A stretch of DNA of 64,000 bases from an uncultured Pseudobdellovibrionaceae bacterium (GTDB lineage Bacteria > Pseudomonadota > Alphaproteobacteria > Micavibrionales > Micavibrionaceae), in assembly GCA_964467925.1 (NCBI GenBank), contig CAYXSX010000001.1, positions 6,870-70,869 on the forward strand, read 5' to 3'. The notes beneath the pieces were generated by a model. The model ran no database searches and was not told the origin of the DNA. It was given only the letters and a program-made list of their open reading frames with translations. Position numbers and translations under genes: made by a program. Shown in pieces: positions 28,300 through 41,000 of the stretch (within the stretch, counting starts at the first letter, position 1; each line of letters starts with the position of its first letter).

Positions 28300-30966
28300 A
28301 TGAGAACCGACACACCCAAAACAATTTATCTGAAAGATTACAAACCTTATCCCTTCGCTATCGGGCATCTGGATTTAACGTTCCAGATTCACGACGGCCA
28401 TACGGATGTATCCGCGCGCAGCGCCATTCGTAAAACCGATCAGACGGCAACGGAAATTTTCCTCAACGGTGAAGATTTGGAGCTTCTTTCCATCGAGATA
28501 GATGGTCGGGAGATCAACGATTACCGCCGTGACGAACACGGACTTTACATCCCCTGCCCGGCGGAAGGCTTTACTCTGGAGATCAAAACCCGCATCAAGC
28601 CGGAGGAAAATACGCGCCTCGAAGGTCTGTATAAGTCCGGGGATACTTACTGTACACAATGCGAAGCCGAAGGGTTCCGGCGGATTACATTTTATCCCGA
28701 CCGCCCCGATGTGATGACCACATTCACTACGCGCATAGAGGCGGACAAAAAATTTCCCGTACTTCTGGGCAACGGCAACCGTGTGGATGGCGGAGAGCTG
28801 GAAAACGGGCGTCATTACACAATCTGGGAAGATCCCTGGCCCAAACCCTGCTACCTGTTCGCGCTGGTGGCCGGAGACCTCACCCATATTCACGATACGT
28901 ACAAAACCGCATCAGACCGTCTGGTCGATCTGTATATTTTCGTACGGCCCGGAGATGAAAGCCAGTGCGCCCACGCGATGGAATCGCTCAAAAAATCCAT
29001 GAAGTGGGACGAGGACACATACGGGCTGGTTTACGACCTTGACGTATTCAATATTGTCGCGGTCAGTGACTTCAACATGGGGGCGATGGAAAATAAGTCG
29101 CTCAACATTTTCAACACCGCTCTTGTATTGGCGCATCAAGACACCGCTACGGATCAAGATTTTATGCGCGTGGAAAGCGTGATCGCGCATGAATATTTCC
29201 ACAACTGGAGCGGTAACCGCGTGACCTGCCGCGACTGGTTCCAGCTTTCACTCAAAGAGGGTCTAACCGTTTTCCGCGATCAGGAATTCTCAAGCGATAT
29301 GAATTCCCGCGCCGTGCAACGCATCGACGACGTGCAGCATTTGCGCAAATTACAATTTGCCGAGGATGCCGGGCCGCTCGCCCATCCCATCCGCCCGGAC
29401 AATTATATCGAGATCAATAATTTCTATACCATGACGGTGTACGAGAAAGGCGCCGAAGTCATCCGCATGTTCCGCACCCTGATGGGGCCGGAAAAATACC
29501 GCAAGGCGACCGATCTTTATTTCTCCCGCCATGACGGCCATGCGGCAACCTGCGAAGACTGGATTAAATGCATGGAAGAGGCTTCCGGCTTTGATTTCAG
29601 CCAGTTTCGCCTGTGGTACAGCCAGGCTGGCACGCCCGAGGTCACATTCAAAGGCGTACACGACATTAAGAACGGCGTATACAGCATTGAACTTTCACAA
29701 AAAAATCCCGATACACCCGGTCAGAAGGACAAGAAGCCCATGCACATTCCCGTGGCCATCGGCCTTGTGGATGAACATGGGGAAGACGTTGTGGAAGATG
29801 TGCTTCATCTAACTGAAGAAAAACAGGAATTTAAATTCGAAAACATATCCACAAAGGTGGTGCCGTCGGTGTTACGGAATTTCTCGGCTCCGGTGAAGCT
29901 CCGTACGTCTCTTGAAAATGCGGAATTGTCGTTTTTGATGCTGCATGACAAAGACGGATTTAATCGCTGGGAAGCCGGGCAGCAATTATATTTGCACATG
30001 CTGAATAACATGATTGATTCCTCCCCCTCTCGTCATCCTGAAGGGTCGAAGACCCTGAAGGATCTTCCCTCAACCGAACGAGATTCTTCAGCGCAAGCGC
30101 TTCAGGATGACATGTATAAATTCATGGAGACGATCGGCAAATTGATCGAACAGGGCATGGAGGCTGAAACCGATAAGGCGTTGCTCGCCCGCTCCCTCAC
30201 CCCGCCCGATATCGCCGCGATCGGTCAGAGCCGGGACGAAGTCGATCCCGATGCGATTTACAAGGCACGCCAAAGCTTGCTCGCCGCGATTAAACGCGAA
30301 CACCGCAAGGCACTCGATAAATTATATACCTCGTGCGAAGATAAGGGCGACTTCAGTATTACGCCGGAAGCCATGGGTGCCCGGGCGCTGCGCGCCGCCC
30401 TGCTTCGCATTTTGACCGCCACGCACGGCACTGGTTGTGCCAAGCTTTCCAAAGCGCATTATGATAGCGCGGATAACATGACCGACCGTATCGCGGCGCT
30501 TTCCGTACTGACCGACATCAACCAGCCGCAGCGTGAAGAGGCTTTCGATGATTTTTATGGACGGTATAAAAACTACCCACTGGTTGTAGATAAGTATTTC
30601 TCGTTGCAGGCTGTAGCAGTGCGTTCAGACATCATAGAATGCCTTAACAAACTCAAACATCATCCTGATTTTAATATCAAAAACCCAAACCGTGTGCGCT
30701 CGCTATACGCCGCTTTTGCCATGAACAACCTAGTCGGTTTCCATGCTGTGGACGGATCGGGGTATAAGTTTTTGGGCGATGCGATTGTAGAGCTCAATTC
30801 TATCAACCCACAGATTGCCGCGCGGCTGCTTACCCCTCTTCGCGAATGGCGCCGCTATACGTCGGATCGCCGCGAAAAGATGCAGGCCACGCTGGAACGC
30901 ATTCTTGAAACACCGAATCTTAGTCCCGATGTCTTTGAAATCGCCAGCAAAAGCCTTAAATCCTGA
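28300..30966 (+). CDS. pepN: Aminopeptidase N (M1 family)
   Basis: GAMEN and HEYFHNWSGNRVT...LKEG zinc motifs; 888 aa. Carries an in-frame palindromic insert at 30031-30111. Confidence 0.95.
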   Translation: MRTDTPKTIYLKDYKPYPFAIGHLDLTFQIHDGHTDVSARSAIRKTDQTATEIFLNGEDLELLSIEIDGREINDYRRDEHGLYIPCPAEGFTLEIKTRIKPEENTRLEGLYKSGDTYCTQCEAEGFRRITFYPDRPDVMTTFTTRIEADKKFPVLLGNGNRVDGGELENGRHYTIWEDPWPKPCYLFALVAGDLTHIHDTYKTASDRLVDLYIFVRPGDESQCAHAMESLKKSMKWDEDTYGLVYDLDVFNIVAVSDFNMGAMENKSLNIFNTALVLAHQDTATDQDFMRVESVIAHEYFHNWSGNRVTCRDWFQLSLKEGLTVFRDQEFSSDMNSRAVQRIDDVQHLRKLQFAEDAGPLAHPIRPDNYIEINNFYTMTVYEKGAEVIRMFRTLMGPEKYRKATDLYFSRHDGHAATCEDWIKCMEEASGFDFSQFRLWYSQAGTPEVTFKGVHDIKNGVYSIELSQKNPDTPGQKDKKPMHIPVAIGLVDEHGEDVVEDVLHLTEEKQEFKFENISTKVVPSVLRNFSAPVKLRTSLENAELSFLMLHDKDGFNRWEAGQQLYLHMLNNMIDSSPSRHPEGSKTLKDLPSTERDSSAQALQDDMYKFMETIGKLIEQGMEAETDKALLARSLTPPDIAAIGQSRDEVDPDAIYKARQSLLAAIKREHRKALDKLYTSCEDKGDFSITPEAMGARALRAALLRILTATHGTGCAKLSKAHYDSADNMTDRIAALSVLTDINQPQREEAFDDFYGRYKNYPLVVDKYFSLQAVAVRSDIIECLNKLKHHPDFNIKNPNRVRSLYAAFAMNNLVGFHAVDGSGYKFLGDAIVELNSINPQIAARLLTPLREWRRYTSDRREKMQATLERILETPNLSPDVFEIASKSLKS
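30031..30111. repeat. Palindromic MITE/REP-like element, type 1 (GTCATCCTGAAG ends), inside pepN
   Basis: Perfect 12-bp terminal inverted repeats. Inner inverted repeat TGAAGGATCT/AGATTCTTCA. By eye, about three-quarters identical to the reverse complement of 47011-47089. Confidence 0.8.
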
Positions 30967-31654
30967 TTTTTCGCTAGAGGAGGAACTCGGCGTTCCCGTT
31001 TGCGGCATAGACGAGGTCGGGCGCGGGCCGCTAGCCGGGCCGGTTGTCGCCGCGTGCGTTTTCATTCCACCGGAGGTGCGCAAGTCGGAATGGGTCGCCC
31101 ATATCCGCGACAGTAAAAAGCTTTCCGAAAAGAAGCTGGAAATGTTATTCGAGGCCATCACCGCACATTGCGTCTACGGTATTGCCGAAATCGCTCCGCA
31201 AGAGATCGACAGGATCAATATTTTACAGGCGGCCTTAAAAGCGATGAGCTTTTCTTTCTCATCATTCCTGCGCATGCAGGAATCCATTTCAATCAACTCA
31301 CCAAGCTCATCCATGGATCCCGGCCTTCGCCGGGATGACATTGTGGCTTTAGTCGATGGAAACCGCTGTCCTGAATTACCCTGCCGAAGCATGGCCGTCG
31401 TTAAAGGCGACGGCAAATCGAAATCCATCGCCGCGGCCTCAATTATCGCCAAGGTCACCCGCGACCGGATCATGCGAAAATTAGCGACAGAATTCCCACA
31501 TTACGGCTGGGAAAGCAATGTTGGCTATCCGTCAAAGGCACACCGGGACGCCATTCTCATCCACGGTATTACGCCCCACCACCGCCGTTCTTTTGCTCCG
31601 GTGAAAAATTTTTTAACGGAACAGCCTCGAGTCGAAACCCTGACTCAGCCTTAG
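30929..31654 (+). CDS. rnhB: Ribonuclease HII
   Basis: GIDEVGRGPLAGPVV, DSKKLS, VDGNRCP, KGDGKS and HRRSFAPV motifs. Start uncertain (ATG 30929 overlaps the pepN end). Carries an in-frame palindromic insert. Confidence 0.9.
   Translation: MSLKSPAKALNPDFSLEEELGVPVCGIDEVGRGPLAGPVVAACVFIPPEVRKSEWVAHIRDSKKLSEKKLEMLFEAITAHCVYGIAEIAPQEIDRINILQAALKAMSFSFSSFLRMQESISINSPSSSMDPGLRRDDIVALVDGNRCPELPCRSMAVVKGDGKSKSIAAASIIAKVTRDRIMRKLATEFPHYGWESNVGYPSKAHRDAILIHGITPHHRRSFAPVKNFLTEQPRVETLTQP
31261..31339. repeat. Palindromic MITE/REP-like element, type 3 (TCATTCCTGCG...CGCCGGGATGAC), inside rnhB
   Basis: Hairpins CCTGCGCATGCAGG and CCCGGCCTTCGCCGGG near the ends. Inner inverted repeat GGAATCCAT/ATGGATCC. 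Same architecture as 32874-32990. Confidence 0.7.
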
Positions 31655-31739
31655 TTTTAAGTCGAAGACTCATCCATAGAGTCCTGACTCTGTTACAAGA
31701 ATCGTTATTTTCGTCTTGACGGCGAATCGGTTTTGACTC
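31629..31739. promoter_or_regulatory. Cluster of 8 GANTC (CcrM target) sites upstream of ccrM
   Basis: Sites at 31629, 31642, 31667, 31679, 31686, 31699, 31724 and 31735. Six lie in the 119-bp rnhB-ccrM spacer. Confidence 0.6.
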
Positions 31740-31743
31740 ATGA

Positions 31744-32856
<1,113 letters not shown>

Positions 32857-38082: not shown

Positions 38083-41000
38083 ATGCTGCAATTCAAAAGC
38101 CTTAGATTAAACGGCTTCAAATCTTTCGTTGAACGCACAGAACTGGAAATCGCTCCGGGACTGAACGGCATTGTGGGGCCCAATGGTTGCGGCAAATCCA
38201 ACCTTGTCGAGGCCCTGCGCTGGATCATGGGCGAAAGCTCGGCCAAGAAAATGCGCGGCGGCGGTATGGAAGATGTAATCTTCGCCGGAACCTCCAAACG
38301 CGCGGCGCGCAATATCGCCGAAGTATCACTCTTGCTCGACAATTCCTCACGCAGCGCGCCCGCAGCCTATAATACCTCCGACGAGATTGAAATCATCCGC
38401 CGTATCGAACGTGATCACGGCTCATCATACAAGATCAACGGCAAAACCGCCCGCGCCCGCGACGTGCAAATGTTCTTCGCCGATACGGTAACCGGGGCCA
38501 ACTCCCCTGCCCTCGTTTCTCAAGGGCGCGTCACGCAAATGATCAACGCCAAGCCGCTCGACCGGCGCATGATTCTTGAGGAATCAGCGGGAATCTCCGG
38601 TCTTTACGCCCGCCGCCACGAGGCCGAGCTTCGCCTGCGCGCCGCCGATTCCAATCTGGTGCGTATTGAGGATGTGCTGGGCAGTATGGAAGAGCGTCTT
38701 TCCGGTCTGAAACGTCAGGCGCGTCAGGCCACGCGCTACCGCAATATCAACGCCCAGATCCGCCAGCTTGAAATCATGATTGCCGCGCTGGAATGGGCCC
38801 AGATCGAGGAAAAGCAAAAGGCCACACAGGCCCGCTTTAACGAAGCCGAAAGCAAGGTCGCCCTCCACCTTACAGCCGTAACCCAGCTCACCAAAACGCA
38901 AAACACCCAGACAGAGGAAATCGCCCCCCTGCGCAAGTCCGAAGCGGAAGCCGCCGCCGCCTTGCAACGTCAGACCCTCGCCCTGCAAAGACTGGAAGAC
39001 GAAGCCGCCCGCGCCGAGGATATGCTTCGCGAAACGCTCGATCAGATCGAACAGACCAAGGCCGATCACAAACACGAAAACGATATTCTGAGCGAAAGCG
39101 CTCGCATTCTTGAAAAACTCACCGCCGAGCTTGCCTCTATTTCCTCGCAGGAGGAAAACAAGGGTGACAGCCTCGAAACCAAGCGCAAGGCAAAGGAAGA
39201 GCTTGAAAGCAAAGTCCTGAAGCTGGAGGAACAATATAACGCCCTCATGCAAAGCGCCGCGGAATCCAAGGCCCGCCGTGCCTCGCTCGAGGGCCAGATC
39301 GCCCAGCATCAGGAACGCCTCGAAATCATGCGCGCCCGTAAAGACAAGGCGCAGGAAGAGCTGAAAGAATTTTCCGGCAACGATGAAAAGATAAAGGAAA
39401 TAGAAACCCTCGCCAAACAGGTGAAGGACCTGGAAGCGCAGGGCGAAACCCTTGGCGTCAACATCATCGGCGCGAAACAGAAAATCGAGGCCGCTGGCGA
39501 AAGCCTCGATCATGCGCGCGGCGAACTTAACGCCGCCCAGAACCGCCAATCGGAATGGCGCGCCGAAATCGCCATGCTGGAATCCTTCTTTAACGAGGAA
39601 GAAAACGAAAGCTTCACGCCCGTGCTGCAAGATATGCGCGTTGATACTGGCTTTGAAAAGGCACTCTCCCGCGCGCTTGGTGACTCTCTCATGGCCTCGC
39701 TGGATGAGGGCGCATCCGTATCATGGCGCAAGCGTGGCAATCTCGATAAACTTCCCGCCCTGCCCGGCGGCGTGCAATCTCTCCTGCCGCATGTAAAAGC
39801 GCCGGAACAGCTTAAACCCGCGCTCAGCCAAATTGGCTTTATAGACGATGAAGCAAAAGGCACCGAATTGGCCGCCGAACTTTTGCCCGGGCAATCCCTC
39901 GTTTCTGCCGCCGGAATCTATTGGCGCTGGGACGGTTTTACCATGACCGGACAGGCGCCCGACCGTCACGCCCAGCATCTTGAATACAAGAACAAGCTAC
40001 GCGCGTTGCAGGCCAAAGCCCCCGAAATTGAAAACGCCATTACAGCCGCGCAAAAAACGCTGGAAACCGCGCAGGAAAATAAAAAGCAAGCCGCCGAGGC
40101 GCTTGATAATTTGCAAAACGACCTGCTGAAAAACGACAATGCGCGCCGCACCGCTGAACAATCTCTCGCCCGTCTCAAGGAAGCGCAAGCCGGGGTGGAA
40201 GCGCAGCGCACCCGCCTGACCGAAACCATCAATATGGCCGGGGAAGACATCGCCGCCGCCGAAGAGCTTTTAAAATGGGACCGTGACCGTCTCGCCGCCT
40301 ATGAGGGTCAGGACAACGAGAAGCAATCAGAAGATACTGAAAAACTCCGCTCTGCATTGTTGGAGGCACGCGAGGCGCATCAATCCGCCGTCAGCGCCTT
40401 TGACGTGCATGAGGCGCAAGCCCGCAGCCGCGAAGCCCGCATTCAGGCCATCGGGGATGAACGCGTAAATGCTCAGAACCGTTCGATCCGCGCGAAAGAA
40501 CGTCTGAAAATGTTGGATGCCCGCGCCCAGAGTCTCGAGGAAAAGCGCAAGGAAATCGCCGATCAGCCAAAAACCTTCAAGGCCGATAAGGAAAAGCTCC
40601 TGACCCTGCTTTCCCAGCTCGAGGAAAAACGCAGCACCGCGGCCGAAAACCTCGCCTCCAAGGAAAGTGAGATCGCCGAAACCGGCAAAGCGCTCAAGCA
40701 GGCCGAAAGCGCCATGGGCGAGGCACGCGAAGCACGCGCCCATGCTCAGGCAACATTGAGCGCGCTGAACGATCAGATCGCTGACATGAAAGCGACCGTA
40801 GCCGAAAAATTCGACATGGAACCAGCCGCGCTTTCCGCTCACGCCGCCGCTGATCTTGAGAAAAACACTGAAGGTCTCGACGTCATTCGCGCCCGCAAGG
40901 ATAAGCTGGGCGGGGAGCGGGACAATATCGGCCCCGTGAACTTACGCGCCGACGAAGAAGCGCAGGAGCTTGAAAAGGAAGTCACCGCGCTTTTGAAAGA

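Follow-up and report, generated by a model that had tools for sequence, protein, structure and literature searches.

The ccrM locus

The window analysed here, a stretch of 64,000 nucleotides (C1:6870-70869), is part of a Micavibrionales metagenome-assembled genome (MAG) of 13 contigs with 1.98 Mb and 52.6 % G+C. It contains ccrM, the gene for an orphan GANTC N6-adenine DNA methyltransferase (31774..32856, plus strand, 360 amino acids with a DPPY motif), and directly upstream of this gene a cluster of GANTC sequences, the predicted target of the encoded enzyme. Eight sites are present within 111 bp, starting at positions 31629, 31642, 31667, 31679, 31686, 31699, 31724 and 31735. The preceding gene, rnhB for RNase HII, has its longest open reading frame at 30815..31654 on the plus strand (Pfam RNase_HII, 5e-39; NCBIfam ribonuclease HII). 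Between its end and the ATG of ccrM at 31774 lies a spacer of 119 bp that includes six of the sites, two more fall within the 3'-terminal codons of rnhB, and the last site stops 35 nt 5' of the ATG. An initial annotation, made from the sequence of the window, had placed all eight sites exactly, and its spacer length, its count of six sites in the spacer and its distance to the start codon agreed with the open reading frame table.

The product of ccrM is a true CcrM orthologue, in line with the gene name used in the initial annotation. The Pfam domains N6_N4_Mtase (3.8e-65) and RAMA (1.9e-17) were identified, the protein matched Caulobacter CcrM (6PBD) end to end over the residues 10-359 with an E-value of 1.7e-152, and the top NCBIfam model was CcrM with 602 bits, a score under the narrow cut-off of 830 bits of that model. 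Neighbours of ccrM are rnhB, folB and mutY; a cognate restriction enzyme does not adjoin the gene. The 3' end of rnhB is found upstream of ccrM in many relatives. Methylation of GANTC has been reported for a Micavibrionaceae MAG carrying a CcrM homologue (PMC9296519). Together with the under-representation of GANTC described below, this is indirect evidence on the product of 31774-32856, which presumably methylates GANTC in this organism. Its nearest named relatives are 'Micavibrio sp.' and unclassified alphaproteobacterial MAGs, in agreement with a place in the Micavibrionales. Among the regulators of the alphaproteobacterial cell cycle, the genome encodes CtrA (NF045991, 418 bits at a cut-off of 350) and a complete GcrA (143.5 bits), and mucR and dnaA are also present.

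GANTC is a rare sequence in this genome. The window contains 95 sites at an expectation of 267 ± 15 from dinucleotide shuffles, and the whole genome has 3122 sites versus 7690 expected from the base composition, a 2.5-fold under-representation. At the genomic density of 1.58 sites per kb, 0.17 sites are expected in 111 bp, thus the enrichment is even stronger than in the initial annotation, which had assumed about 0.4. The Poisson expectation for a cluster of eight sites anywhere in the genome is 2e-6. The cluster upstream of ccrM ranks first in GANTC density, and comparable clusters, whose frequent occurrence would have spoken against a special role, are not common: the next densest have 7, 6, 5 and 5 sites. 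Over the whole genome, five clusters with at least five sites were seen at an expectation of 0.09, about 50-fold above Poisson. The cluster is also unusual in the middle base of its sites. GASTC accounts for six of the eight sites and for 18 % of the genomic sites (P = 7e-4), being far scarcer in the genome (570 sites) than GAWTC (2552 sites). A second copy of the GANTC stretch was not found in the genome, it is thus unique and not a repeat element. Within 31400-31900 no structured RNA was indicated by an Rfam match at E ≤ 1, and a weak hairpin at 31710-31726, which overlaps the -35 element described below, was rejected as a terminator because its left arm is not conserved. The initial annotation had also considered a titration of methylation by the cluster; this is implausible, as the cluster comprises only 8 of the 3122 genomic sites (0.26 %).

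Anatomy of the predicted ccrM promoter

By its layout, the GANTC cluster is the predicted promoter region of ccrM, with CcrM targets built into a core of the sigma-70 type. The promoter scan yielded a sole sigma-70-like promoter in 31450-31850, TTGACG-17 bp-CATGAT, with 9 of 12 consensus positions. In its -35 element (31716..31721, plus strand) the TTGAC is invariant in the order, and its -10 element (31739..31744, plus strand) has a CAnnnT pattern that is kept class-wide. Judged by the usual spacing, transcription would start near A31751 and yield a leader of 23 nt, in which a Shine-Dalgarno-like GGGAGAG (31762..31768, plus strand) is situated 5 nt 5' of the ATG.

Two sites are inside the core. 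Site 7, named A (cGAATCg, 31724..31728), lies in the spacer that separates the -35 from the -10 element, with its centre at about -25. Site 8, named B (tGACTCa, 31735..31739), is centred at about -14; its final C serves as base -12 in the -10 element and the -11 A comes next. Over the -10 element, with a centre at about -7, GATCG (31742..31746) represents a decayed third core site, named C. Upstream of the core, site 6 or U (aGAATCg, 31699..31703, at about -50) and site 5 or D1 (cTGACTC, 31686..31690, at about -63) precede the TTGAC by 17 and 30 nt, respectively. Site 4 (aGAGTCc, 31679..31683, at about -70) has counterparts at the same offset in the loci L011 and L036. Site 3 (aGACTCa, 31667..31671, at about -82) lies 49 nt upstream of TTGAC, and a GANTC at this offset (-48/-49 from TTGAC) recurs in several genera (loci L002, L010, L011, L016 and L036). 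The two sites inside rnhB, site 2 (tGACTCa, 31642..31646, at about -107) and site 1 (cGAGTCg, 31629..31633, at about -120), are located in the last nine codons of the gene, which are poorly conserved; site 2 is kept in the same genus and site 1 only in the same-genus genome.

A T-rich tract, gttattttcgtc (31704..31715, plus strand), directly precedes the -35 element; the alignment consensus before TTGAC is ATTTTTTTC. In our reading this tract may be UP-element-like, or TATTTT (31706-31711) within it may serve as the -10 element for a second, weaker promoter further upstream. Two other interpretations of the core letters were rejected: a LexA-type direct repeat GTTC-N7-GTTC, which has the 11-bp period of the sites A and B, is a misfit in its letters, and a sigma-32-type reading of CTTGAC...CTCATGAT is a poor fit.

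Conservation of the promoter within the order

Loci of ccrM were taken from 40 relatives, representing 24 genera from within the family and seven further families, and 29 upstream regions were aligned. Site counts are based on the 28 promoters that could be anchored, from at least eight families of the order. The initial annotation had proposed such a comparison, and the relatives have kept the same core with its GANTC sites. The alignment consensus reads ...ACTGACTC-N8-GAATC-N3-ATTTTTTTC-TTGAC-GGC-GAATC-GGTTTT-GACTC-ATGATTCG. Site A is present in all 28 promoters, with A as middle base in 16, G in 6, C in 3 and T in 3. Site B was found in 26 of 28, invariably as TGANTCA (middle base C in 14, T in 7 and A in 5). 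Site C, as TGATTC(G/T) over the -10 element, is present in 19 of the 28 relatives including the same-genus genome and is lost here. Upstream, 24 promoters have site D1, with any of the four middle bases and the 5' T kept in 21 of these 24, and 13 have site U. Four of the eight sites described here (A, B, D1 and U) thus occupy positions that are conserved order-wide. The conserved device, as deduced from the alignment, is a core promoter with two to three sites together with one to two upstream sites.

The target sequence itself is enriched in these promoters. GANTC occurs 163 times in the 4144 bp of the 28 promoters, versus 20, 14 and 28 occurrences of the same-composition controls CTNAG, TCNGA and AGNCT. 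Per 145 bp the relatives have 3-10 sites (median 5); in this genome 8 were counted and in its congener 10. The stronger switch suggested in the initial annotation would possibly come from a sharper threshold with a larger number of sites; the relatives have their 3-10 sites around the same core, and the core site C is lost here. Searching 41 genomes of the order for TTGAC-N2-4-GANTC-N5-7-GANTC, we obtained the motif in 33, mostly once each and at the coordinates of the ccrM upstream region, and the reversed control pattern gave seven matches in total.

Selection seems to act on the CcrM target itself, as the middle base drifts and the four other letters of GANTC stay the same; the half-site of a conventional regulator would not be expected to behave in this way. 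The fixed positions, the free middle base and a core motif that is nearly unique per genome argue strongly for sites that are retained as CcrM targets in the promoter of ccrM. An alternative is that the GANTC letters are parts of sites for an ordinary sequence-specific regulator or ordinary promoter letters, and that they coincide with the CcrM target only incidentally or by chance. Site B would suit this explanation, being always TGANTCA with a 3' CA that is shared with the -10 element, and so would the sites 4 and 5, which in this genome form a palindrome of 14 bp (AGAGTC-CT-GACTCT). However, the palindrome is not conserved in relatives and was rejected as a regulator site, the middle base is free at A, B and D1 while GA..TC is fixed, and GANTC is 6- to 12-fold enriched over the controls. 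In three orders or more, the motif stands before the single gene with a product that recognizes it, and chance predicts such a cluster with the expectation of 2e-6 given above. An incidental match is thus close to refuted.

A separate observation was made in a relative lacking site B at ccrM. Its sole full two-site motif runs antisense to lon and spans the 3' end of that gene (L152, G016:C1:2306780-2306803, minus strand); this may be chance. In Caulobacter, Lon is the protease degrading CcrM.

Distribution in the Alphaproteobacteria and CtrA boxes

A class-wide set of 80 named alphaproteobacterial ccrM loci was inspected for the core. In 40 of these loci the two-site core is present not more than 280 bp upstream of ccrM, and 10 more have TTGAC with site A. 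The core occurs in Azospirillum, Niveispirillum, Magnetospirillum, Reyranella and many Sphingomonadales, and is absent in Oceanicaulis, Hirschia, Hyphobacterium, Tepidicaulis, Bosea, Aureimonas, Nitratireductor, Roseibium and others. The geometry of the two-site promoters is rigid around site B: its start follows the end of TTGAC by 14 nt in 39 of 40 promoters, the base after site B is A in all 40, and a T at -7 was found in 34. Site A drifts by 1-2 bases. Since the gap and the flanking bases are rigid, site B is locked to the -35 and the -10 element.

This fixed geometry bears on another explanation, in which the cluster is bound by a MucR-type protein and stays persistently under-methylated, as an epigenetic switch or a bound regulatory region and not as a sensor of the cell cycle. 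In both Caulobacter and Brucella, MucR keeps CcrM away from clusters of GANTC (PMC10925313), mucR is present in the genome, and the promoter region has 44 % G+C compared to 52 % for the window. This is only a mild AT-richness, however, and core sites that are fixed to the base pair relative to the -35 and -10 elements favour an interplay with RNA polymerase over a binder of AT-rich DNA resembling H-NS. We consider a protected cluster to be improbable.

The initial annotation had seen no TTAA-N7-TTAA box for CtrA, and this was confirmed, though ctrA itself is in the genome. Neither this box nor a TTAACC half-site was found in 31500-31800; a single match with one mismatch is situated at 31602, inside rnhB. 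In the class-wide set, a CtrA box or a TTAACC half-site was present at 18 of 30 loci without the motif versus 6 of 40 loci with the motif (Fisher P = 1e-4). Judged by this distribution, two alternative kinds of ccrM promoter appear to exist, one with the core motif and one of the CtrA type.

The self-regulation of ccrM by GANTC is an old idea. This analysis adds the anticorrelation with CtrA boxes, the twin promoter of the dcw cluster described below and the analysis of the site flanks. Our literature search did not find a description of the core-promoter layout, its near-uniqueness, the multi-order spread or the exclusion with CtrA-type boxes. GANTC sites upstream of cell-cycle genes had been counted by Brilli et al. 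2010, who drew no conclusion.

The rsmH promoter and other GANTC clusters

The genome under study has two copies of the core motif. The second, TTGACC-N17-CATAAT at C1:593344-593321, precedes rsmH by about 80 bp; the dcw division cluster begins with rsmH, and mraZ does not precede rsmH here. The core of this promoter, TTGACC-gcc-GATTC-gcatg-GACTC-ATAAT, has the layout of the ccrM promoter, and it sits in a cluster of six GANTC in 78 bp that ranks third in density in the genome (C1:593321-593398, outside the window). The congener G001 shows the same arrangement at rsmH. Five other genera without mraZ before rsmH have a different GANTC-rich rsmH promoter (GCGACTC..GGATTCATTGACGAWTC).

An evolutionary proposal can be sketched. 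The promoter TTGAC-N3-GANTC-N6-GANTC-A may represent an ancestral, CtrA-independent timing of CcrM, a self-contained epigenetic pulse generator switched on by the hemimethylation at the replication fork and switched off by its own mark, which later was replaced by CtrA control in the Caulobacterales and most Rhizobiales, and which in this genus also would drive the rsmH/dcw operon. We regard this as tentative and, in its full extent, rather doubtful. If it were true, the device at dcw would tie the division of an obligate predator directly to the replication of that locus.

Further GANTC clusters were noted. The second-densest (C2:213990-214099) has seven GAWTC in 110 bp of an intergenic region of 1.27 kb with 42 % G+C. 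On one side of this region is the gene for a CheY-like single-domain response regulator, on the other that for a large surface protein (cadherin-like/Big_9/DUF5801); the cluster is similar to sites close to an autotransporter of Brucella that are shielded by MucR. Five GANTC are located between enolase and pdhA, also intergenic (C6:105769-105871). Intragenic clusters with 4-5 sites were observed at 38571-38651 of the window in an open reading frame of 1023 amino acids, at C3:77674-77777 in dnaA and at C1:167630-167701 in a gene for a PrmC/HemK-type methyltransferase. As to the cell-cycle regulators, the 300-bp upstream regions contain one GANTC for gcrA and none for dnaA and mucR. About 300 bp upstream of ctrA (match at C1:457759-457989) hold a single GANTC, aGATTCc, beside TTAA-rich repeats (TTAATATTTGTTAAT), which recalls the methylation-sensitive P1 promoter of Caulobacter ctrA.

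A proposed self-sensing promoter with negative feedback

With high confidence, based on its anatomy and on what is known from other systems, we propose that the ccrM promoter senses the mark that is written by its own product. The whole reading, a self-methylated ccrM promoter under negative feedback, is given a rough probability of 0.55; in it, the methylation of the sites in this organism, the direction in which it acts, the choice of sigma-70 or GcrA as its reader and the start of transcription are inferred. CcrM would methylate the promoter driving its own gene, and the output would be set by the unmethylated, hemimethylated or fully methylated state. Passage of the replication fork would leave a hemimethylated promoter and switch ccrM on; CcrM would then re-methylate both strands, and the promoter would be turned down. 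In this way, each replication round would bring one pulse of the methylase, and no CtrA box would be needed. At site B, RNA polymerase with sigma-70 may read the mark directly. N6-methyladenine (m6A) would lie there at -15 and -13, where the transcription bubble has its upstream edge and where regions 3.0 and 2.4 of sigma-70 contact duplex DNA. The mark at site A, and in the relatives also that at site C, would probably be read by GcrA, which could act in a repressive arrangement.

The negative sign was chosen for three reasons: it is the only logic that gives a self-limiting pulse and restores methylation after a shortfall, it fits the precedents in Caulobacter and Agrobacterium, and the sites A (-25) and B (-14) are half a helical turn off the -20 position, which GcrA uses on the DNA face that points away from RNA polymerase, with the m6A of site B at the sigma-70 contacts named above. 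In Caulobacter, ccrM is 'most probably' regulated through its own GANTC sites (PMC3973325).

The position of ccrM on the chromosome was also considered as a clue to timing. In four relatives, two with closed and two with nearly closed genomes, ccrM is 64-85 % of the replichore away from dnaA. This distance would suit a trigger late in S phase, and the reading does not rely on it. In this genome, dnaA (C3) is situated in a stretch of uniform skew and not at a GC-skew switch, and the gene-strand bias is weak. The minimum of the cumulative GC skew is on C2 at about 78 kb, and the only DnaA-box-like cluster of the genome is at C2:110654-111190; the replication origin therefore probably lies apart from dnaA.

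Several points weigh against the negative feedback. The sign of the feedback is not derivable from the sequence. A GANTC in the -35/-10 spacer of Caulobacter ftsZ activates transcription when methylated (PMC3708114), and the effect of the ccrM GANTC sites in Caulobacter was called 'minor' (PMC10925313). The sites A and C bear flanks of the GcrA type, and GcrA is mainly an activator. The dcw promoter of the genus shares the layout of the ccrM promoter, which would fit a common activator. Finally, the remaining distal sites, half of the eight, are kept only at the genus or subfamily level.

Some of these points lead to a positive control by GcrA. In this explanation GcrA would use the methylated sites as its boxes, and ccrM, together with the dcw operon in this genus, would belong to a methylation-stimulated GcrA/CcrM regulon. 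GcrA is a cofactor of sigma-70 that prefers methylated YGAKTCK, with hardly any boxes at the -10 element (PMC4647560, PMC9976885); its boxes act at about -20, at about -30 and from +2 to +30 (PMC9976885). A complete gcrA is present, and YGAKTCK is fitted by 18 of the 28 A sites (CGAATCG here) and by 18 of the 19 C sites, compared to a background of 17.5 %, with counts that are phylogenetically non-independent. TGATTCG, the form of site C in 13 relatives, is the top GcrA motif of Caulobacter (PMC4647560). The shared core layout of the rsmH/dcw promoter would add to this, as the division genes of Caulobacter are activated by methylation and GcrA (PMC3708114). The positions of the sites fit less well. 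Relative to the conserved TTGACG-17-CATGAT, they are centred at -25, -14 and -7, half a turn off -20 and in a region in which the GcrA promoters of Caulobacter are nearly free of sites, and YGAKTCK is not fitted by site B (0 of 26) and barely by D1 (1 of 24). A variant of the explanation moves the start partly to the weaker upstream promoter CTGACT(31684-31689)-16-TATTTT(31706-31711), which would put D1, U, A and B near -31, -18, +7 and +18, all in windows permissive for GcrA; however, this promoter has 8 of 12 consensus positions and is below the threshold of the promoter scan. If an essential methylase were under positive feedback, bistability would result, and ccrM is not among the GcrA targets reported in the GcrA literature searched. 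On balance, activation by GcrA, the main rival, seems unlikely, though it is to be taken seriously.

The timing of CcrM is understood almost only in Caulobacter, where it is driven by CtrA; in many Alphaproteobacteria CtrA is not the master regulator of the cell cycle. A rigid promoter with the targets of its own enzyme, shared by Micavibrionales, Rhodospirillales-type genera and Sphingomonadales, would be a concrete answer to how Alphaproteobacteria without such a role of CtrA confine CcrM to one window per cycle. The ccrM promoter would also be a natural example of a methyltransferase mark at core positions defined to the base pair, useful for studying the effects of m6A at -15 and -13 on sigma-70 and GcrA. 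This locus is a Micavibrionales instance of the device that is especially rich in sites.

Comparison with known systems

Methyltransferase targets within core promoters are known from other systems. The Dam-sensitive promoters pIN of the IS10 transposase and P2 of dnaA have a GATC in their -10 region, and restriction-modification systems such as CfrBI have their own site in their own promoter. In these cases, as proposed for the ccrM promoter, a methyltransferase target over core elements ties transcription to hemimethylation or to the activity of the enzyme; they involve another enzyme family, another site and other organisms. To our knowledge, none of them is the promoter of a conserved housekeeping cell-cycle methylase.

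The GcrA/sigma-70 promoters (ctrA P1, ftsZ, mipZ, csM) resemble the ccrM promoter in their sigma-70 type, in a GANTC not more than 40 bp from the start and in the presence of gcrA (PMC4647560, PMC9976885, PMC3708114); flanks of the form YGAKTCK are found at site A and, in the relatives, at site C, but not at site B. In those promoters the boxes are centred at -20 ± 1, -30 ± 2 or +2 to +30, usually one per promoter, whereas the sites here are at about -25, -14 and -7 relative to the conserved core. The promoter PG of gcrA in A. tumefaciens has six GANTC in 250 bp, and its full methylation represses transcription even in E. coli (PMC11514494). Hemimethylation was proposed to activate PG, and the effect in E. 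coli suggests a direct reading by RNA polymerase (PMC11514494). Both promoters belong to cell-cycle regulators and have a strong over-representation of GANTC, here 8 in 111 bp versus 0.17 expected. Unlike the ccrM promoter, PG drives the gene of a reader and not of the writer, thus forming no self-loop, and a fixed core layout has not been reported for it.

The closest counterpart is the ccrM promoter of Caulobacter, the same gene with a promoter that bears the target sites of its own enzyme. Stephens, Zweiger and Shapiro (J Bacteriol 177:1662) reportedly described in 1995 that it carries its own GANTC, and methylation would help silence ccrM late in the cycle. Expression in Caulobacter is driven by CtrA via TTAA-N7-TTAA, the two GANTC are in the leader and their effect was called minor. 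In contrast, the promoter presented here has eight GANTC, two of which occupy fixed positions within the core promoter and none of which lies in the leader, and it has no CtrA box.

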